A stretch of 64,000 nt of DNA from a virus (IMGVR_UViG_3300026097_000015:1-64000), one strand, 5' to 3'. Positions 3,924 to 45,311 are shown, numbered from the stretch's first letter. Notes: generated by a model from the letters alone, not told the origin. Made by a program: numbers and translations.

Positions 3924-4601
3924 ATGGCTACCAAGATCTACGATTCTGACTTTATCAATCTAGTCGACGGTACCGAATTGTATATTACACCATTAAAAAT
4001 TAAATTCTTAAGAGAGTTTATGGAAGAGTTTAATGCTGTAAAAGAATCTAAAGATGACGGCGAGGCTATCGGCTATTTAACGAGGTGTGCAAAAATATGC
4101 ATGAAGCAGTATTACCCCAAAATACAAACTATAGAAGAGCTAGAAGACTCAATAGATATGCCAACAATTTATAAAATATTAGATGTTGCTGCTGGAATTA
4201 AAATAAATGAAAACTCAGACGAAAAGGTAAAAGATCAGGCAACCGACAGCGGCTCTTCCTGGGAAGATTTGGATTTAGCCAGGCTAGAGTCTGAAGTGTT
4301 TTTACTCGGTATCTGGAAAGACTATGAGGAATTAGAAACATCCTTGTCTATGCCAGAGCTAATAGCCACTCTTGGATCAAAAAGAGAATTAGACTACGAA
4401 GAAAAAAAGTTTTTAGCAGCTATTCAGGGGGTAGATTTAGACAAAGAATCTGGAAAACAAGACGATTGGGAGAAAATGAAGGCGAGAGTCTTTAGTGGCG
4501 GAGCTACAGATAACCCTAATGACATCATGTCTTACCAGGGAAACAAGGCAGCAAAAGCGGGCTTTGGCATAGGCATGGGACTAGATTACGAACAAGTGTA
4601 G
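3924..4601 (+). CDS. Tail assembly chaperone, long form
   Basis: Between tail tube and tape measure; N-terminal ~100 aa are paralogous to 4666..4986. Confidence 0.7.
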   Translation: MATKIYDSDFINLVDGTELYITPLKIKFLREFMEEFNAVKESKDDGEAIGYLTRCAKICMKQYYPKIQTIEELEDSIDMPTIYKILDVAAGIKINENSDEKVKDQATDSGSSWEDLDLARLESEVFLLGIWKDYEELETSLSMPELIATLGSKRELDYEEKKFLAAIQGVDLDKESGKQDDWEKMKARVFSGGATDNPNDIMSYQGNKAAKAGFGIGMGLDYEQV

Positions 4602-4665: not shown

Positions 4666-4986
4666 ATGGCGACAACAGTCAACGAAAAGAAAACAGTCAC
4701 ACTTATTGATGGCACTAAGGTTGAGGTTCGTCCACTAAAAATATCCCTTCTTCGTGAATTCATGAAGAGGTTTGAGGGCATTGCTGCGGTGGCGGAAGAT
4801 AACGATAAGTCAATGAATCTGCTTATGGAGTGTGTACAAATCGCTATGCGTCAGTACAAGCCTGAGCTTGCAGATGACAAGGAAGGCCTAGAAGAAAACC
4901 TAGACCTTCCAACTGTTTACAAGATTGTCGAGGAAGCATCTGGAATTAATATGAGCCAGACTCCTGTCGGCAACCTTGGCAAATAA
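4666..4986 (+). CDS. Tail assembly chaperone, short form
   Basis: Directly upstream of the tape measure; shares DGT...PLKI..LREFM..F and D.PT.YKI...A.GI with the previous ORF. Confidence 0.75.
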   Translation: MATTVNEKKTVTLIDGTKVEVRPLKISLLREFMKRFEGIAAVAEDNDKSMNLLMECVQIAMRQYKPELADDKEGLEENLDLPTVYKIVEEASGINMSQTPVGNLGK

Positions 4987-5005: not shown

Positions 5006-8000
5006 ATGGCTGATATTCAGTCAAACATTAATATAAATGTAGACACTACGAATGCTACAGCGGCAATTCGTAATCTACAGGCTCAGATATCAGCATTCCA
5101 TCAGCAAATGCAGAAGTCGGGGTCTGCGGCAAATGCCGCAACCTCGGCTAACATGCAGCGTAACTTAATAAACTCTGTCAACGCTACCAAAAAATTCTCT
5201 GCCTCTATGGCAACGGTAAGCACACAAACAGAATCTTTTACAAATTCCTTAGAAAAAAACAAGCTGTCCATGGGGCAGTACTTCAGATATGCAGGGGCAT
5301 CTACCAGATCCTTCGGACGCCTATTTAAGAGCGAGTTCAATACAATCAGCCAAGTTGCTGAGTCTCGTGTAAGAACTTTACAAACTCAATATGTCAAGAT
5401 GGGCCGTGACGCCAGCGGTGCCATGAAGGCACTTAAGGTCAGGCCCCTGTCCCTTGATATGCAAAACCTGTCTACTCAGACAATGGTGGCTGCACAAAAA
5501 CAACAAATTTTTAATCAACTGTTAAGGCAAGGATCTACAAACCTTCTAAACTTCGGTAAAAATACTCAGTGGGCTGGTCGACAGCTAATGGTCGGATTCA
5601 CCATCCCCTTGGGCATTATGGGAATGACTGCTGTAAAGGAATTCCAGAAAATTGAAGAACAGGTTATTAAGCTAAAGCGTGTCTATGGGGACATGTTTAC
5701 CACAAACGCAGAGACTGACAGGGCGGTAGAGCAAGTTAGAATGCTTGCTGAAGAATTTACCAAGTATGGTATTGCCGTAGAGTCGACAATTGGCCTAGCG
5801 GCTAGCGTAGCCCAAATGGGTAACGTTGGTGCAGACATGGTTAATCAGGTTACAGAAGCCACAAAGCTTGCAGTTCTTGGAGGCATGGAACAAGAGAAGG
5901 CTCTTGACACAACCATCTCACTAACGAATGCTTTTGGAATTGCTACTGAAGACCTTACCGATAAAATTAACTTCCTGAACGCAGCAGAAAACCAAACAAT
6001 TCTTGCAATTGATGACTTTACTGAGGCCGTCCCTAAAGCTGGTGCTGTAGTCGCACAGCTCGGGGGAAGCGTAGAAGATCTTGCATTCTTTCTAACTGCT
6101 ATGAGGGAAGGTGGTGTTAATGCGTCGCAAGCGGCTAACGCCTTAAAGTCATCCCTAGCACGACTAGTTAACCCAACAGAAAAGGCTCAAGAAGACCTCA
6201 GGGCCTTGGGGATTGACGTTCTTTCAATTGTAGAAGGTAACGTCGGAGACCTTAAGGGAACTATTATGGACCTTGGGGTTGCCCTAGACGAACTGCAACC
6301 ACTTCAGCGTTCTCGGGCATTGGAAGAGCTTTTTGGTAAATTCCAGTTTGCAAGAATGTCTACACTGTTCAACAATATTGCCAGAGAAGGCTCTCAGGCT
6401 CAAGAGATCTTAAAACTAACAGGCAATACTGCGGCAGAGTTACAAATACTTGCTGATAGAGAGTTGTCTAGAGTAGAGGAATCTCCAGCTACGAAACTGC
6501 AAAAGCAGGTAGAAAAGCTGCAAGCCGCACTAGCTCCAATTGGGGCCGAGTTTATTAAGCTGGTTACTCCTATTGTAGAGTTTTTCACTAATTTACTTAA
6601 AAAGTTTAATGAAATGGACGACGGAGCAAAGTCTTTCGTAACTGGATTAATCACGGTCCTTGGGCTAATAGCCCCAGTAGCTATCATGACTTTCGGTCTA
6701 GTTGCCAACGGTATTGCAAACTTGATGAAAGCTTTTAACGCCTATCGGTCATTCCTACAAATTCTTAGTGGATCAAACAGAAGTGTGGTTACTAGCACTC
6801 AGTATATGACTCAAGAGCAGCTAGAGGCCGCATCTGTAGCCACAAATCTGGGTCAAGCCCATCAGCATTTGGCACAACAGTTTACGGTAGAAGCAAGTGC
6901 TTTAGAAAAGCTAAGAGCAGTATATCAAGCAGCGACACTAGAGATGCAAAGATATAATGCAGCCAGTGCCGTTGTTCCCGCACGAGCAGTAAGGCCACCA
7001 ATAGCAAGAGCTACGGGTTCTAGGAGAGCTTCTTCTCCAGGAGGGCCCTTAGGATTTAATAAGGGAACCTTAAATGTACCAGGCCCGAGGGGTGCAGGAG
7101 ACATTGTTCCAGCCGTACTCTCTCCAGGAGAGGCGGTTATTCCAGCAAGGCAATCTCAAAAATATTCAGGCTTTATTGAAGATATTATGAATGATCAGGT
7201 TCCAGGCATGATGTTCGGAGGATTTGCCAGCATGTTTGGGATGAGGGGAATGCTAGGCAGATCTAGAGTTGCCACAAGAATGAGCAGTGACGCTTTTAGA
7301 GGGTCTCTAAGGTCTGGAGATTTAAACTATAAGAGCGGATTTGCCACGGGAACTGGTGCAGACTTCACAGATCGCATGGGTAGGCCGATGAGAGAGCATC
7401 AGCTAATGCGTAGGCAGGCTGAGAAAAAACTTTATGGAACCCCCTTAGGAAGTAATGATCCTTCAATGCGTCCGACCTATGGATCGGTTGCGACTACTCC
7501 ATTACAAAGAATTTTAAACCTAATCTTTGGCGGAAGAAAAGGTCGTCAGTTTAATCAGGTCACCAACCCTATGGCATCAAATCTGGATCAGTATGGTGAC
7601 ATTTCCTTAATCGGTAAGAGAGGTATGAATCAGAGAGCCTCTACCTTTGTAGGCGATACGCTTCTAAAATATTCAAAGAATCCAGCATGGCTAAAGGGCA
7701 CGTCTCCAATGAAGGGGGCTACATCTAGTCAGCTAGGCACCGCAGGCTTTGATTCATTCAGCAAACCATTTGGAACAAACAGGACAGCTGACGGAGGAAC
7801 AAGCGTCAATTCCGCACCCTCTTACATTGAAGCTCAAACTATGGGTGGCTTTAACTATAGGGAAATAGATAAAATTGTTACCAGAGACCCAGCACTAAGA
7901 AAACAGCTTAAGGCTGAGCTAGGTGCAGCAGGTCTCGGAGGCGTCAGGGTTGGAGGCCCAGGATTTGTATCTAATCTATTAACAAAGCTGGGCGTTCCTG

Positions 8001-11000
8001 GATTTAAGAACGGTATATTTAGTGTGCCAGGTCCGATGGGGGCGGGGGACGTTGTCCCTTCAATGCTTTCTCCAGGAGAAGCAGTAATTCCCGCAGATAA
8101 GGCTAAGAAATATCGTGGCTTCATAAAGGCAATGATTTCTGACAATATCCCTGGATTTGAAGGAGGTATCGCAGACTTTGCCTCTGTTGACGGTAATTCC
8201 TCAGTCATGCCTTCTGGAAGAGCCATTCAGTCTACCAACCCAAGACAAGCATCTCAGTTATCCTCAGTAATTAATAAGCTATTAGAAGGTTTTAAGATGC
8301 TGGGATTCTCCGTTGAGCAGGCAGAACAAGAAATTCTTGAAATGGCTACTGCAGCAGAAAAAAACGGAAAAGTAACTGCCAAGAATTTTGAAGCACAGTC
8401 CAAAGGTTCAGGAGCAGATATTGCCTCCAACAATACGATAGCAGCTAGACGAAATGCTGGCAGGACTCCTTACGTAAAGGGTAATGAAGGGGCCGCTTCC
8501 CTTCACATGGGTGCACCGCAAGAGCTTACAGATATTGATAGACAAGAGCTTATAAAAGATCTTGAGTCCAAGGGGTATGGGGATGACGCAGCAACTAGAA
8601 AACTTAGAAGCAATCCAAGAGCTAAAGTAACAAGTGATGCAACTGTAATTGCTCCTGCAATTATGAATAAGTCTGGCAAGGTGACTGGAAAAGAAGCATC
8701 TAACATCATTTCCAGTGCCCCAGGAATGGCCACAGCAGACATAGCCGCAGCTAGTGGACTTGATTCAAGCGACGAAGTGCTTAGGCAAGCAGAGCAAAAC
8801 ATGCAAATGTATCTTTCAGAAATGGGAGATGAAATATTAACAGATACTCAGGTTTCAGATGCTCTTCGTAGAGCAATCGTAGACGCAGCAGATAGCGTGA
8901 AGGGCGAGTCTGGCAAAAAAGTTAAACAACAGCTTGATAATAAACGAATTATTGTCGGGGGAAGAGGAACAACTAAAGATAAGTTAGCAAGGGTTGGTCT
9001 TCCTCAGGGATACAATTTTACTACATCAAGCGGAAAGAACGTTACTGGCCCTGAACAGGGAGCGGGTACATACCTTAGTAGAAACACAAAGACAAGATTC
9101 CACGAGCAGGCAGAAGGCCTAACTGTTCAAACTGCTAAGAATAAACCTTCGATGGCAATGCGTTCAGCCGCAAAGCCTACCAGAAGAGCTAGCAGTCCAG
9201 CTAAAGACGCAAGCGGTGATGCAAAAGAATATTCAAATACTTTTAATAATGATGTAGAAAACAAGAGTAAAGATCCATACCAGCTTGCTAGAGACAATCG
9301 TAATAGCCCCCACCCTCAAGCAAAGAAGGATGGAGCAGATGACGCAAGAGCCTATAACAATTCTTATAGAAGAGCTTCGGGGTCTGCAGGAGGACCCCCT
9401 CCAGTGCCAAAGCCTCGAAGGGCAACCGCTCCAGCAGGACCAGTAAGCCCTAATGGAGTTCCTATAGCTCCAGGATATACTAGCCCTGTCGTACAACCAG
9501 CTAATGCTGCGACAGCAGCAGATAAATCTGGAAAAGGCTTTTTCTCTAAGTTTGGTGAAAAGGCTCGTGATGCTGGCAGCTCATTGGGTCGTAAAGCCAT
9601 AAGCACCCTAGAGAATAGCAGCGTTGGAAGAAAAATTGGTAGTCAGATGGCTGCGGCAGCAGGAAATACTCTGACAGACAGTCAAGGCAATATAATCTAT
9701 GACGCAAACACTGGAGAACAGTTTGATACTCAAGGTAACGTCGTAGCAACAGGGGGCACACCGCCTGCTCCAGGACAAAGCGGAGAAGTTTCTCAAGACG
9801 TAGCTATTGGGCCAGATGGAAACCCAATGGTAGACAAAAAAGGAAGACCGCTTTCCCAGAAAGATGCTACCAAACAGGCTCGCAAACTGGCTAGCAGGCA
9901 AAAGAGAGGCATGGTAGCAGGACGTCTGGGCGGAGCAATGGGATCAGCTTCAATGATGCTGGGAATGTCCTCAATGATGCCAGGAATGGGGGACAACCCT
10001 GTAATGAAAGCAATTCAAGGATTTATGCCTGCTCTCTTTGGGCTGTCAGCAGTTATACCCCTTCTGGCAGCCATGCCCTTACCAATTACAGCAGTTATCG
10101 CAGCTCTTGGAGCCCTAGCGTTTGGTCTTTACAAGTATAATGCAGATCTTAAAGAGTCAAGGGAAGCTGGCGTAGAATTAGGCAATGCACTTACAATAAC
10201 TTCCGATAAGCTAATCGAAATGTCTAAGGCAACTGGTACTGTTAGTGCCACTGAGGCAAGAAAAAGAGCACAAGAAGACCAGGTAAGCGGAACCTCTGCT
10301 AGCCAGAGACAGTTCGGAATGAACTTCATGGAATCAGATGCTGGTAAGTCTATACTCTCTGAGATAGAGACTATCGCTACCAGTGGTCTGGGTCTCGAAG
10401 AAGCATCAGAGTCTATAGGCAGACAACTTTCTATGGCAGTTTATCAAGGAATCCTGTCTCCAGAAGAAGCAAATAGCGTTATCGCTGCACTCGGTGCAGA
10501 AATGGATGATTATCAATTTTCTGCAGACATACAGGGGCAACTGATATCTCTGATTGGCCCCAACGGAAAAGACATAACTGAAGAGCCTTTGGATGTTGCT
10601 TTGGCAATTCAGGAATCTGGGGCCGATCAAGTAGAAAGCTTCGCCTCCATGGTAGAAACCAGGCTTTCTCAAGACTTTGATCTATTTGATAGTTTGATTG
10701 ACGATGCGGACGTGTCTAAAAAGTTTGAAGAGCTTTCTCCTGAAGTTCAGGCAGAAGTAAAGTTTAGAGCAGATCTAGAGCAGCAATACGGAGATGGCGG
10801 CTTCGGCAGAATATTTGCGGGTTTCCAAGGATTCTTGATGGACAATGCCATTTTTGGCGGAGATTTACTAAGGTCCAGTGAGGGTGTTTACACACAGGCT
10901 AAAAAGTTTGTAGAAGAAGCATCTGTACTGACTGATCCAGTTAAATTACAGTCTGCGGCTGTCCAGGTAGGAATAGGTCAGGTCTCTGAAAATCAGCAAG

Positions 11001-14000
11001 TATTGGATGCCCTACAAGCTCAGTTTGCTCAAAAAGAAAAAGCTCTAGAGGCTGACATTGATGCAGAAGAAAATGCAGAAAAAAGAAAGTCTTTAGAGGC
11101 AGAGCTTACTGATCTTCAAGCAGAAAGAAAATCTGCGGTAAGTGAGCTAAATAGTGCGAATGCAAGCACTTTGGGTCAAATAGTTGAAATGAGAGATCTT
11201 TACAAAGATACTGATGCTTTTGCAAAAGCAATCTCGACATCCGTTCTTGCTGGTTTCGAGGATGATGACCCGCTAAAAATTCTTGCGGAAGAAACCGTAA
11301 AACAGCTGGAAAACCTAGAAGACTCTGACTTTAAGACTAATATACAGCTAGGCTTTGCAAGCGGAGAGCTGAGTATGTCAAATGTTCAGTCTTTGTTAAA
11401 TGCAATTGAAACCGATCCTTCAGTAAGGATGGACTTTGCAGTCATCGTAAACGATCAGGGATTCGCCGAAGCATCTCAGCTAATGACTTTGTTGGGGATG
11501 GCAGGCTTAGAAGGAGAGGAGCTAACTGCGGCAATTAGAATATTTTCTTTCTTTGATGACCCTGAAGAGTTTAGTAAAAATATTGCAGCATTAACCGAGT
11601 TAGCACAGCTAGAAACTGAGTATGGCGTAAAGATTGATTTAGAAGACGAAAACTTTGAGAAAAAGCTCAAGGCTGGAACAGATGCCATAGATGCTTTAGA
11701 AGATAAGCCAGATGTCATTAAAAAAACAGATCTAGAAATTATGAATCTGCCCATGTTCGAGGGACTTCTCGCTAACTGGGAATCAATGCTAGGCAGTAGC
11801 GATACAGTTACAAAAACAGCTATCCTAGAGTATATTCTAATGTCTAAAGGAATTGATAACGACCTGATAGAAAGATACCGACAAGAGGTTCTGGGAGGGG
11901 TCCCCTTCGCCATGGTTGGCCTAACGGACCAGCAGGCTATGGACAGAGCTACCGCATTTTATCAAAAGCAAGGAAATAAAACTGAATATGAGGAAGATGA
12001 TCCAGAGGACGATGGGCTAGGAGACGATACTGGGCCAGTAGCCTCTGCTTTAGATTCTATTGTTTCTAAGCTTCGTGACGTAAGAGACGAAACGATTAAA
12101 GCTACTAAAGGCTGGACCTCGTCCATAGAGCAACTACAAAAATTGTTTGGCGGAAACAAGACTATTAGAATTTTTGACGGATTACAGCAATCACTCCGCA
12201 GCCTTGGAGCTGGAGAAAACCTAATTGAACTAATTGTTGGGATGGACCCAGACGAGTTTGAAAGACGTAAGGATCAACTATTTACCATCAAAGGCGGACA
12301 AATAGTCGGTCTTAAAGATGCAGCTATCAGCATCGGAGATGCCTTAAACTCCATAAAGGTAGGAGAGTTCCAGAACTCTCAGGAACAAATTATAGCAGAT
12401 ACCGCTAATCAAGAAATTGCACTGCAAAAGCTCACAGACGCAGGACTATCTCTTTCAGAGGCATATGAGATTGTCGCAGACAAAGCCCTTGCCGCAGCCC
12501 TGGCCACTGGGCAGATAACTGGAGAAGAGTTTGATGAGCTTATAGAAAAAATTGACGCAGCTTCAGAGGCAGCTGAAAGATTCGATGCAATTAAAAAGGT
12601 CTCATTAGATATTGAGTCAAGAAACGAAGAGATTAGAATACAAAGTTTTATATCTGGAGAATTTGATCCTTCTGTGGCGGAAGATGCTTTGCAGATTGCT
12701 GCTATCATAAGTGATGAGGGCCTAAAGGGTATGATAGCTGCAGGGGAGCAGGGTGCAGAAATTTTTGCTGAAAGACTGCAACAAATAACCACTTCCAAAT
12801 CTTTCCTAGAAAAAGTTTTCTCTCAAGGGTTCAGCAATGCTATGGAGGCATTTAATGTAAAAGAGCAGCAAGTAAGGCTGACCGTTGCCGCTGAGCTAGA
12901 GGCAGGAACTTTTGCTAACTCTATATATGCCGAGGCAGAAGACCTAGAGTCAGTTTTTGGGGTAGATCAGCTATCGGACTTGCTTGGAATTTCAAAAGAC
13001 ACTGTTCTAGACGCCTTGTCTTTGGTAGATCCAGAAGCTATCGTAAAGGCTTCTCAAGCCCAGATAGAAGCGATAAATTTTGCAATAGATGATCTTGATG
13101 CAGAGCTTCAGCTAATACAAGAAGAAGAAGAAAAGATTAATGAGGAATACGATAAAAGAGTAGAAGCTCTAGAGAAAGTATCTGAAATTAACGATAGGAT
13201 TAAAAGGTCTCAAGAGTCCCAGTTAGGAATTGCCAGTGCCCTATCTCGTGGGGACATTGCCGCCGCTGCCAAAGCGGCACAAGAGGCAAGGGCAGAGGAA
13301 GCTAAGGCAAGGATTGAACAAGAAAAGAGTGCTCTAGAGAAAAAGAGAGAGGCAGAGCTAAGCGAGCTAAGAACTAAGGATGGCCTAACTCGTGAGCAAA
13401 TTGAAACAAGAATAAAAGATCTTAAAAGGGAAATATTTAACATTGAAGAGGACACTCTAGAGCCTGCACGACTTGCCCTTAGCCTTTCTGAAATGCTGCT
13501 AGATAAAGAAATACAGAGCCTTACAGTTTTGGGTAAAACTAAAGAGGCCTGGACTGCAATTAAAAATGAGGTAGACCTTGCAAAGATAGCTAGCGATGAG
13601 TTCGTTGCCTCAATGATGGCAGCTCTGGGAAGCTATCAAGATTTGATTCGTGCATACAACGGAGAGACACAGCCAACACCTTCCAGAGGTTCAGGCTCAG
13701 CTCCCGTGGCAGAAGAAGAGGAAGAAACTAAAAGGATAAATTCTTCTTACACAGTCGTAGCTGAGGCACAGCGGGCTGGAAACTCTAATGCTGAGGTCTT
13801 GGACAGAGATACTGCTGCTGCCGCCGCCTACGAAGCTGTTCACGGATCAGGAGTATCTGGTGGCGATACAACAATTAAGGCTTCAAGCACCTTAGAATTT
13901 GCGGATAAGGTTCAGGCCAAAGTTCTAGAAAACAGAAATGCAGTCAGAAGTGGAACTCTTTCGGATTCTCAAAGATCGAAACTAATGAATGAAAACATAG

Positions 14001-14440
14001 ATCTAATGCAAAGCTCAGGTTTAAAGTTTGCAGTGGGAGGAATAGTCCCTAGATTTGGCATGGGCGGAAAGGTTTCATACAAGGCTGGAGGCGGCGTATT
14101 GCCTTCACAGGCCTCGGGAGCGGGCAGAGTGGGATATTTCCCTATGGGTGGTATGATACCTTACAAGGCCAGCGGAGGGCTGTTCCAGAGCATAAACACA
14201 GACACTGTCCCCGCAATGCTAACCCCTGGAGAGTTTGTAGTAAGAAGGTATGCTGTTGACAAATATGGTGTAGATAAGCTAAAATCTATCAATAATGGAA
14301 CATACAGCGGTGAATCAGTGTATAATTATAATCTAAGCGTTAATGTCAAGTCTGATGCCAATCCAGACGACATAGCTAGAACAGTTATGACTAAGATTAA
14401 GCAGGTAGACTCACAAAGGATGAGGGGCAATAGGTTTTAA
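5006..14440 (+). CDS. Tape measure protein (3144 aa) with inserted cargo domains
   Basis: TP901-like tape-measure core in the N-terminal ~600 aa, hydrophobic segments, coiled coils, D.VPA.L.PGE.V motifs and position after the chaperones. Confidence 0.92.
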   Translation: MADIQSNININVDTTNATAAIRNLQAQISAFHQQMQKSGSAANAATSANMQRNLINSVNATKKFSASMATVSTQTESFTNSLEKNKLSMGQYFRYAGASTRSFGRLFKSEFNTISQVAESRVRTLQTQYVKMGRDASGAMKALKVRPLSLDMQNLSTQTMVAAQKQQIFNQLLRQGSTNLLNFGKNTQWAGRQLMVGFTIPLGIMGMTAVKEFQKIEEQVIKLKRVYGDMFTTNAETDRAVEQVRMLAEEFTKYGIAVESTIGLAASVAQMGNVGADMVNQVTEATKLAVLGGMEQEKALDTTISLTNAFGIATEDLTDKINFLNAAENQTILAIDDFTEAVPKAGAVVAQLGGSVEDLAFFLTAMREGGVNASQAANALKSSLARLVNPTEKAQEDLRALGIDVLSIVEGNVGDLKGTIMDLGVALDELQPLQRSRALEELFGKFQFARMSTLFNNIAREGSQAQEILKLTGNTAAELQILADRELSRVEESPATKLQKQVEKLQAALAPIGAEFIKLVTPIVEFFTNLLKKFNEMDDGAKSFVTGLITVLGLIAPVAIMTFGLVANGIANLMKAFNAYRSFLQILSGSNRSVVTSTQYMTQEQLEAASVATNLGQAHQHLAQQFTVEASALEKLRAVYQAATLEMQRYNAASAVVPARAVRPPIARATGSRRASSPGGPLGFNKGTLNVPGPRGAGDIVPAVLSPGEAVIPARQSQKYSGFIEDIMNDQVPGMMFGGFASMFGMRGMLGRSRVATRMSSDAFRGSLRSGDLNYKSGFATGTGADFTDRMGRPMREHQLMRRQAEKKLYGTPLGSNDPSMRPTYGSVATTPLQRILNLIFGGRKGRQFNQVTNPMASNLDQYGDISLIGKRGMNQRASTFVGDTLLKYSKNPAWLKGTSPMKGATSSQLGTAGFDSFSKPFGTNRTADGGTSVNSAPSYIEAQTMGGFNYREIDKIVTRDPALRKQLKAELGAAGLGGVRVGGPGFVSNLLTKLGVPGFKNGIFSVPGPMGAGDVVPSMLSPGEAVIPADKAKKYRGFIKAMISDNIPGFEGGIADFASVDGNSSVMPSGRAIQSTNPRQASQLSSVINKLLEGFKMLGFSVEQAEQEILEMATAAEKNGKVTAKNFEAQSKGSGADIASNNTIAARRNAGRTPYVKGNEGAASLHMGAPQELTDIDRQELIKDLESKGYGDDAATRKLRSNPRAKVTSDATVIAPAIMNKSGKVTGKEASNIISSAPGMATADIAAASGLDSSDEVLRQAEQNMQMYLSEMGDEILTDTQVSDALRRAIVDAADSVKGESGKKVKQQLDNKRIIVGGRGTTKDKLARVGLPQGYNFTTSSGKNVTGPEQGAGTYLSRNTKTRFHEQAEGLTVQTAKNKPSMAMRSAAKPTRRASSPAKDASGDAKEYSNTFNNDVENKSKDPYQLARDNRNSPHPQAKKDGADDARAYNNSYRRASGSAGGPPPVPKPRRATAPAGPVSPNGVPIAPGYTSPVVQPANAATAADKSGKGFFSKFGEKARDAGSSLGRKAISTLENSSVGRKIGSQMAAAAGNTLTDSQGNIIYDANTGEQFDTQGNVVATGGTPPAPGQSGEVSQDVAIGPDGNPMVDKKGRPLSQKDATKQARKLASRQKRGMVAGRLGGAMGSASMMLGMSSMMPGMGDNPVMKAIQGFMPALFGLSAVIPLLAAMPLPITAVIAALGALAFGLYKYNADLKESREAGVELGNALTITSDKLIEMSKATGTVSATEARKRAQEDQVSGTSASQRQFGMNFMESDAGKSILSEIETIATSGLGLEEASESIGRQLSMAVYQGILSPEEANSVIAALGAEMDDYQFSADIQGQLISLIGPNGKDITEEPLDVALAIQESGADQVESFASMVETRLSQDFDLFDSLIDDADVSKKFEELSPEVQAEVKFRADLEQQYGDGGFGRIFAGFQGFLMDNAIFGGDLLRSSEGVYTQAKKFVEEASVLTDPVKLQSAAVQVGIGQVSENQQVLDALQAQFAQKEKALEADIDAEENAEKRKSLEAELTDLQAERKSAVSELNSANASTLGQIVEMRDLYKDTDAFAKAISTSVLAGFEDDDPLKILAEETVKQLENLEDSDFKTNIQLGFASGELSMSNVQSLLNAIETDPSVRMDFAVIVNDQGFAEASQLMTLLGMAGLEGEELTAAIRIFSFFDDPEEFSKNIAALTELAQLETEYGVKIDLEDENFEKKLKAGTDAIDALEDKPDVIKKTDLEIMNLPMFEGLLANWESMLGSSDTVTKTAILEYILMSKGIDNDLIERYRQEVLGGVPFAMVGLTDQQAMDRATAFYQKQGNKTEYEEDDPEDDGLGDDTGPVASALDSIVSKLRDVRDETIKATKGWTSSIEQLQKLFGGNKTIRIFDGLQQSLRSLGAGENLIELIVGMDPDEFERRKDQLFTIKGGQIVGLKDAAISIGDALNSIKVGEFQNSQEQIIADTANQEIALQKLTDAGLSLSEAYEIVADKALAAALATGQITGEEFDELIEKIDAASEAAERFDAIKKVSLDIESRNEEIRIQSFISGEFDPSVAEDALQIAAIISDEGLKGMIAAGEQGAEIFAERLQQITTSKSFLEKVFSQGFSNAMEAFNVKEQQVRLTVAAELEAGTFANSIYAEAEDLESVFGVDQLSDLLGISKDTVLDALSLVDPEAIVKASQAQIEAINFAIDDLDAELQLIQEEEEKINEEYDKRVEALEKVSEINDRIKRSQESQLGIASALSRGDIAAAAKAAQEARAEEAKARIEQEKSALEKKREAELSELRTKDGLTREQIETRIKDLKREIFNIEEDTLEPARLALSLSEMLLDKEIQSLTVLGKTKEAWTAIKNEVDLAKIASDEFVASMMAALGSYQDLIRAYNGETQPTPSRGSGSAPVAEEEEETKRINSSYTVVAEAQRAGNSNAEVLDRDTAAAAAYEAVHGSGVSGGDTTIKASSTLEFADKVQAKVLENRNAVRSGTLSDSQRSKLMNENIDLMQSSGLKFAVGGIVPRFGMGGKVSYKAGGGVLPSQASGAGRVGYFPMGGMIPYKASGGLFQSINTDTVPAMLTPGEFVVRRYAVDKYGVDKLKSINNGTYSGESVYNYNLSVNVKSDANPDDIARTVMTKIKQVDSQRMRGNRF

Positions 14441-45023: not shown

Positions 45024-45311
45024 TTGGAAAACGAAGACTGGAAGAGGTCTGCGTCTTGCTTAAACTACGAAACAAATCTATTTTTTGATGAATATGAAGA
45101 AAATGAAAACCTTAGACCTGCCATCGATAAGATATGTTCGGACTGTCCCGTAGCAAGGCAATGCTTTGCTGTAGGGGTTTCCCAAAAAGAGTGGGGAGTT
45201 TGGGGAGGAATATTTCTTGAAAATGGCAAAATTAACAGAGAGTTTAATAGGCACAAAGCAAAGCAAGACTGGGCAAAAACATGGCAGTATTTAACAATTG
45301 ATAAGAAGTAG
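45024..45311 (+). CDS. whiB: WhiB-family Fe-S transcription factor
   Basis: W...ASC...FF....C..CPV...C...E.GVWGG. Confidence 0.92.
   Translation: MENEDWKRSASCLNYETNLFFDEYEENENLRPAIDKICSDCPVARQCFAVGVSQKEWGVWGGIFLENGKINREFNRHKAKQDWAKTWQYLTIDKK

Follow-up and report, generated by a model that had tools for sequence, protein, structure and literature searches.

A predicted ADP-ribosyltransferase-fold domain in a repeat-bounded slot of a giant phage tape measure protein

We analyzed a window of 64,000 nucleotides (positions 1-64000) from IMGVR_UViG_3300026097_000015, an IMG/VR virus contig of 101,544 bp that is ~93% complete and has a G+C content of 41%. A single open reading frame on the + strand (5006..14440, 9435 nt) encodes a tail tape measure protein (TMP) of 3144 amino acids. 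Within this protein, a basic insert of 259 residues, hereafter domain D (7223..7999, +; aa 740-998), is bracketed by two copies of a peptide repeat, R1 (7052..7222, +; aa 683-739) and R2 (8000..8168, +; aa 999-1055). AlphaFold2, Foldseek, VIA, and hhalign comparisons point to D being a cassette with a SopF/DUF3626-like ADP-ribosyltransferase (ART) fold, seated at a site that related TMPs fill with other domains.

The tape measure protein and its bracketed slot

The product of 5006-14440 is a true TP901-type tape measure protein, as a sequence-only reading of the window had proposed. It matches PF10145 (E 3.5e-27, 96 bits against a cut-off of 33.2) and TIGR01760 (E 3.5e-26, 92 bits against a cut-off of 28.8) in a PhageMin_Tail/TP901 core region (5762..6337, +; aa 253-444) that lies within the conserved N-terminal ~680 residues, and its N-terminal ~650 residues match PHROG TMP families with a best E of 3e-89. 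The gene also has both the tail-module position and the hydrophobic segments of TP901-type TMPs; genes upstream of it encode a pair of chaperone-like paralogs and a tail protein with an Ig domain, and a 1431-aa minor tail protein is encoded downstream. The N-terminal stretch of the window TMP (aa 1-743) is 55-63% identical to its relatives, independent of which insert they carry.

The same reading had described two ~55-aa near-copies at 7052-7222 and 8000-8168 that flank a basic insert of ~260 aa, together with a third core copy near the C-terminus, and this architecture held up throughout. R1 and R2, each of 57 aa, are 54% identical (74% positives, E 4e-20), and a third, shorter copy (aa 3065-3087) aligns to R1 at E 1e-3; its core, R3 (14198..14242, +; aa 3065-3079), ends ~78 aa before the C-terminus. 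At the DNA level R1 and R2 are only ~65% identical, with a longest shared run of ~11 nt, and because they differ mainly at third codon positions the repeat has been kept as a peptide and does not reflect a recent DNA duplication. The pattern of substitutions indicates that the repeat peptide is under selection. R1 stands always at about aa 665-700 in the relatives and is followed by variable sequence, while the last R copy lies 78-79 aa before the C-terminus in most of 120 relatives. Searched alone, R has no NCBIfam match, and there is no family model for the R motif. We regard R as a marker of the cassette border, with a border signal, a processing site, or a docking or refolding element as candidate functions.

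The repeat itself is widespread. A sequence-profile search of PDB chains found an R-like motif twice inside the TMP gp16 of mycobacteriophage Douge (PDB 8ZDO chain S; residues 962-1006 and ~1410-1470), for which the resolved structure covers the last 42 residues only (PMC13033339). The motif also occurs in TMPs of prophages and contigs from Paraburkholderia, Trinickia, Xanthobacter, Glycomyces, and others (L088-L096), and in the form G.G..D..PA.LS.GE.V...A...KY it is common in ordinary TMPs of actinophages and of prophages of Burkholderiaceae, Xanthobacter, and Glycomyces. A scan of genome contigs returned R-motif matches only and no D; the MAG labels of those contigs disagree with one another and were left aside in assigning a host. 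One relative, P0115, has five R copies and is without D.

Searches with the R1-D-R2 region yielded more than 1000 homologs, all of them in TMPs of 2 to 3.7 thousand amino acids, and D by itself is confined to such TMPs or to TMP fragments. Across 67 IMG/VR loci, the 300 residues past R1 sort into no fewer than 11 clusters with no relation to one another: D occupies the site in 28 loci and a kinase-like domain, X1, in 16, followed by clusters of 8, 5, 3, and 2 and by singletons. D is the commonest occupant of the slot among these 67 loci and not a rare cargo. The exchange shows when the window TMP is aligned with that of locus L053. The two proteins are collinear over aa 1-743 (63% identity), over R2 at aa 997-1054 (71% identity), and from aa 1614 to the end; homology stops at aa 743, just past R1, and is back from aa 997, and between the two repeats L053 carries X1 in place of D.

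X1 spans ~296 aa and lies at L040:10178-11068, L053:2906-3796, and 14 other IMG/VR loci. It has no Pfam match and bears the motifs VFVKPV, AE, D.D....N, and ADVG. Its structural model (mean predicted local distance difference test [pLDDT] score 82.5, predicted template modeling score 0.83) matches CotH (Z 11.1), MavQ (9.4), CtkA (9.1), PI4KII (9.0), Fam20C (8.8), and HipA (8.5), and nearly all of its Foldseek top 50 are protein or lipid kinases or kinase-like enzymes, so that X1 is predicted to be an atypical protein-kinase-like domain. The inter-repeat region of a further locus (L048:6828-9725) includes, at aa 623-746 there and downstream of a kinase-like cassette, an acid phosphatase of the HAD superfamily (PF03767, E 1.3e-15).

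We placed these inserts on a tree of the N-terminal 660 residues, inferred with a quick IQ-TREE search. The insert classes are interleaved on this tree, and supported branches force at least six changes each for D and for X1. The clade that holds the window TMP (100% support) has five members, three with D and two with X1. These comparisons indicate that the slot past R1 is polymorphic, with different cassettes at one fixed site that are incongruent with the scaffold tree, in agreement with the earlier suggestion that the site between the repeats is swappable. Elsewhere in TMPs D is found too, including in a second slot before the last repeat, and it is sometimes duplicated. Some relatives (P0021, P0110, P0073, P0076, and P0003) have a second D in the slot between the penultimate and last R, near the C-terminus, and four D-like domains stand in tandem in P0145, which at 1213 aa is probably a fragment.

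Fold and family of domain D

No family model reaches D directly: searches of Pfam (E <= 1), PHROG, NCBIfam, and PADLOC gave no match in any of them. A single-sequence search of IMG/VR likewise gave no match, and it was an alignment query that found the relatives; a look-alike search of the ESM Atlas was uninformative (best score 0.76). The AlphaFold2 model of R1-D-R2 (m0ca221d31cca), built with 47 homologs, has a mean pLDDT of 84.9, and the core of D reaches 90-98. Foldseek searches of the PDB placed SopF first (7dn8/7dn9, E 3.5e-6, probability 1.00), then DarT (E 1.2e-4, probability 1.00), and then Tpt1 and CteC. VIA-align, which is independent of Foldseek, also placed SopF at the top of a search of 48k structures (Z 11.8, 191 aligned residues, root mean square deviation 3.7), followed by DarT (Z 10.5, 10.2, 9.1, and 8.6), Tpt1 (6.9), OspC3/CopC (~6.2), and CteC (5.6). 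Scabin, pertussis toxin, LT, pierisin, and PARPs appear further down, and the top ~30 are practically all ARTs. The split beta-sheet ART core of D is matched to six distinct ART families at VIA Z scores of 11.8 to 5.6. On the strength of this model, D is predicted to have an ADP-ribosyltransferase fold, as the sequence-only reading had anticipated.

Five residues, R802, E806, G864, D884, and E942, are invariant in 163 of 163 distinct D copies, and Y775, Y825, Y863, and R758 persist in 158 or more of these copies, with overall identity among the copies down to ~24-30%. E942 (codon 7829..7831, +) is the predicted catalytic Glu of a Y-I-E-A-Q motif and opens a beta strand in the model; R758 ends beta-1, and Y825 and Y863 lie on or beside strands. 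We interpret these as putative active-site residues under strong constraint. The motifs YKSGFATGTG, R..AE..LYG, RPTYG, YGDI.L, R.STF.GD, and YIEAQ..GG occur in the order that the sequence-only reading had given for DUF3626, and nearly all of them coincide with invariant or near-invariant columns of the family. D is also very basic, with an isoelectric point (pI) of 10.6 and 36 Lys and Arg residues against 17 Asp and Glu.

The proposed DUF3626 relationship found support, although not from the Pfam DUF3626 model. SopF is a DUF3626 protein with the domain at residues 178-338 (PMC6682159), and it belongs to the ARTs, with an I-Y-E triad (PMC10333799). We built a reference DUF3626 profile from L097 (PF12294, E 5.8e-9), the one member found among 400 genomes of one class, and 14 homologs, all of which belong to PF12294. 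When a 25-sequence profile of D was compared with it, hhalign returned a score of 39.3 (P 1.8e-4 local and 3.4e-5 global, over 200-267 columns), with a probability of only 48.7%; controls comprising the kinase cassette, a reversed profile, and 12 column shuffles scored 9-19 with P values of 0.1-0.98. The alignment pairs SRVAxRM of D with SRLTINF of DUF3626, RYxSxF with EYxNCF, RxxxE with GRxxxEE, YG[DK] (YGD with YGKS), the Asp at D884, and [YH]IEAQ, in which E942 pairs with the DUF3626 Glu. The DUF3626 motif set thus recurs in D in the same order, with a spacing that differs around RPxY.

Pairwise BLASTP between D and the DUF3626 protein is not significant (E 5.6), a sequence-profile search of PDB chains with the D region did not reach SopF, and a six-frame search of the phage genome with the DUF3626 HMM (hidden Markov model) at E <= 10 gave no match, as was true of the control genomes. 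DUF3626 is also absent from five bacterial genomes reached via R-motif loci. We read D as a divergent SopF/DUF3626-like ART that falls outside the family as Pfam defines it.

Both likenesses and differences mark the comparison with SopF, a Salmonella effector of the type III secretion system (PF12294; PDB 7DN8/7DN9). SopF is the best structural match of D by two methods, and the two share a motif order that includes the [YH]-I-E-A-Q strand; both are also linked to a device for injection into another cell, although for D that delivery is presumptive. D lacks the N-terminal ~120 residues of SopF, and the VIA alignment covers only residues 120-374 of the SopF chain. Unlike SopF, D lies inside a phage structural protein and is presumably aimed at a bacterium, and because its presumed target is a bacterium, activation by ARF is implausible. 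DarT, the toxin of the DarTG toxin-antitoxin system, has the ART fold in common with D (Z 8.6-10.5 over ~170-183 residues) and is likewise basic, but the sequence motifs of D are of the DUF3626 type.

The fold is not confined to this setting. In the BFVD structure library D matches, at E values of 1e-13 to 1e-7, a Nodularia phage protein with DUF3626, a protein annotated as "minor capsid protein," large polyvalent-type proteins of Bacillus phages, and a mycobacteriophage protein. The fold of D therefore recurs in virion-associated phage proteins, there outside the tape measure.

Injection, catalysis, and alternative explanations

We consider it fairly probable that D is a divergent ART of the SopF/DUF3626 branch, carried as an exchangeable cassette in the TMP, that is injected and uses NAD+ at the site of entry. 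The N-terminal ~680 and C-terminal ~1500 residues would form a constant ruler and channel scaffold, and the stretch past R1 would be a slot filled, according to lineage, by D, a protein-kinase-like domain, or other modules. Upon infection, the TMP would be expelled from the tail, and its two hydrophobic segments (6623..6724, +, aa 540-573, with a Kyte-Doolittle maximum of 2.41 in a 19-aa window; and 10010..10135, +, aa 1669-1710, likewise called by hydrophobicity) would insert into the cytoplasmic membrane. The strongly basic loop with R1-D-R2 would then face the cytoplasm, where NAD+ is at hand. After refolding, D would draw on NAD+ and ADP-ribosylate a macromolecule of the host (a protein or DNA) where the DNA enters, and would do so before phage gene expression. 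We infer catalysis, target, topology, refolding, timing, and delivery to the cytoplasm alike.

TMPs fill the tail lumen and exit first at infection, those with two membrane regions are thought to be released and to form a trans-envelope conduit via these segments, and the DNA in the tail lies against their N-terminal part (PMC13033339). The basic D (pI 10.6) and its flanks (pI 9.6) between two hydrophobic segments give a hint of the topology: because this stretch is net-positive, the positive-inside rule would orient R1-D-R2 toward the cytoplasm. The few enzyme molecules that a virion could carry would be sensible only for a catalyst. The substrate is a membrane proteolipid for SopF and single-stranded DNA for DarT, and the charge of D fits a nucleic-acid or an acidic-membrane setting.

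A number of observations weigh against this explanation or against its family assignment. The Pfam DUF3626 HMM (PF12294, gathering score 27 bits) gives no match to D or to the TMP at E <= 1, and the hhalign probability is no higher than ~49%. RPxY is present in both families (RPTYG in D, SRPLY in DUF3626), but indels shift its spacing and hhalign leaves it unpaired, and beta-1 of D carries V/T followed by an invariant Arg, against I-N in DUF3626. The mapping of residues onto the I-Y-E triad of SopF comes from the profile alignment and strand positions. Three copies of a folded 28-kDa domain would exceed the tail lumen, so that D would have to be stored unfolded and refold after ejection; alternatively, it could be trimmed off during assembly. 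Finally, D is the majority state of its slot, which leaves room for a structural role.

Three rivals must be set against these data. One is a sub-case of the explanation above, in which D acts on nucleic acid as a DarT-like ADP-ribosyltransferase and labels the DNA of the host, or the incoming DNA, at the entry site; the DarT Z scores of 8.6-10.5 fall within about 1-3 units of that of SopF, the pI of 10.6 is very high, and the N-terminal part of the TMP touches DNA in the tail (PMC13033339). We nonetheless think it unlikely, since D has no match to the DarT (DUF4433) HMM in Pfam or PADLOC, its motifs match DUF3626, and its closest match, SopF, modifies a membrane protein. The 101.5-kb phage genome moreover encodes neither a DarG-like macrodomain (a control Macro match was found in 8 of 14 genomes) nor an ADP-ribosylglycohydrolase (ARH), and is in this respect devoid of a reversal enzyme. 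A transfer reaction is itself at issue in the second rival, in which D is an ART-fold NAD+ glycohydrolase (NADase) or an NAD+/ADP-ribose-binding module that acts by local NAD+ depletion or sensing, for example to blunt NAD-dependent abortive infection. ART-fold NADase effectors exist in the literature, the invariant Glu is common to NADase toxins, and the fold by itself cannot separate a transferase from a hydrolase; yet the nearest structures (SopF, DarT, Tpt1, and CteC) are all transferases, and bulk depletion of NAD+ is much to ask of three to six enzyme molecules per virion. We hold this rival to be improbable.

The third rival would strip D of any catalytic relevance and treat it as a structural module, a spacer or docking element of a long ruler, with the repeats as leftovers of unit duplications and the polymorphism as neutral shuffling. 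Neutral module shuffling is indeed common in phage tail genes, TMPs evolve as units are duplicated or lost, R-like motifs are found in ordinary TMPs that include Douge gp16 and those of prophages from many phyla, and some relatives have two to four copies of D. Against it stand the charged and aromatic residues on the strands of the ART NAD+ site, which are invariant over 163 copies at 24-50% identity, the enzyme folds of the alternative inserts (kinase and HAD phosphatase), and the R peptide, held despite synonymous divergence. We find so passive a role quite improbable.

An injected, NAD+-using transferase would have several precedents among known systems. Virion-packaged ARTs include T4 Alt, VIP2-like toxins fused to MuF, and the ART domains of polyvalent proteins (PMC9503650; PMC7302621). 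These embody the same idea as D, an ART in the particle that is delivered with the DNA, but they are associated with the head or portal and come mostly from myoviruses, whereas the carrier of D is a siphovirus-type tail TMP, its ART is of the SopF type, and its site is an internal slot bounded by repeats. A 2022 survey of viral NAD and ADP-ribose systems mentions neither tape measures nor DUF3626/SopF (PMC9503650), and our literature search turned up no report in which a tape measure is connected to any ART or to DUF3626/SopF.

TMPs with embedded lytic domains (Rpf-like, M23, and transglycosylase) are well known. They show extra functional domains as the window TMP does, but the known inserts act on the cell wall and those described here are cytoplasm-type enzymes. 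Sle1, among the TMP-related reconfigurable effectors of contractile injection systems in Actinobacteria (2026), has diverse exchangeable domains and goes to membranes (PMC13277306). It is the cargo of a contractile nanoparticle and not a phage ruler, however, and its variable domain is C-terminal, in contrast to an internal slot flanked by R. Polymorphic toxins such as Rhs, CdiA, and MuF toxins have in common with the TMP slot a constant scaffold, a border motif, recombining enzymatic cassettes, and an incongruence between cassette and scaffold phylogenies. In the TMP, unlike in these toxins, the cassette lies internally with a border on either side, the scaffold runs ~2000 aa further, and no immunity gene is expected or seen.

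We advance more tentatively, as a possibility and not as an expectation, that in a large group of siphophages, uncultured and probably actinobacterial, the giant TMPs are polymorphic effector injectors. R would serve as a functional border signal, whether in processing, refolding, or docking, and would guide cassette exchange, and the enzymes, which would include a SopF-like ART, a CotH/HipA-like kinase, a HAD phosphatase, and several unassigned modules, would be freed at the cytoplasmic DNA entry pore to disable defense or take over the host before phage expression. If true, a tail ruler with a slot for an ART, kinase, or phosphatase would be a second route for pretranscription manipulation of the host besides head-packaged enzymes, in siphoviruses that surveys describe as poor in NAD and ADP-ribose enzymes. 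Hundreds of metagenomic TMPs of 2 to 3.7 thousand amino acids would likewise acquire a function, and SopF/DUF3626, so far represented by one characterized effector of an animal pathogen, would be extended to the conflict between phages and bacteria. Such a natural scaffold would show where a TMP tolerates foreign domains.

Neighboring genes and further features of the tape measure

Searches of INPHARED phages by blastn and tblastn with the region as the query gave no match. The host of the phage is probably actinobacterial because the window encodes a WhiB-like gene (45039-45212, +; PF02467, E 3.5e-13), a match found among the control genomes in Corynebacterium only. Two relatives, P0025 (aa 2530-2569) and P0032 (aa 2738-2787), have peptidoglycan-binding CW_7 or LysM repeats near the TMP's C-terminal end, which fit a monoderm (Gram-positive type) host envelope.

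Upstream of the TMP gene, two adjacent genes on the + strand (3924-4601 and 4666-4986) share the PHROG family phrog_10504 (E 1.5e-24 and 8e-18), and the product of 3924-4601 has an additional C-terminal part that matches phrog_10474. They look like paralogous tail-assembly-chaperone genes and not like one frameshifted G/GT pair.

Past R2, the TMP continues with a basic, low-complexity variable region (8171..9925, +; aa 1056-1640; pI 9.6) that has no family match and no similarity to L053, and a weak match to PF06791 (TMP_2), under the Pfam cut-off, lies just downstream of the second hydrophobic segment. Four RRA[ST] motifs occur in the TMP (7022-7033, 9182-9193, 9368-9379, and 9416-9427, all +; aa 673, 1393, 1455, and 1471), one directly before R1 and three in the basic low-complexity stretch. 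These motifs resemble basophilic kinase or processing sites, and sister TMPs hold a kinase-like cassette.

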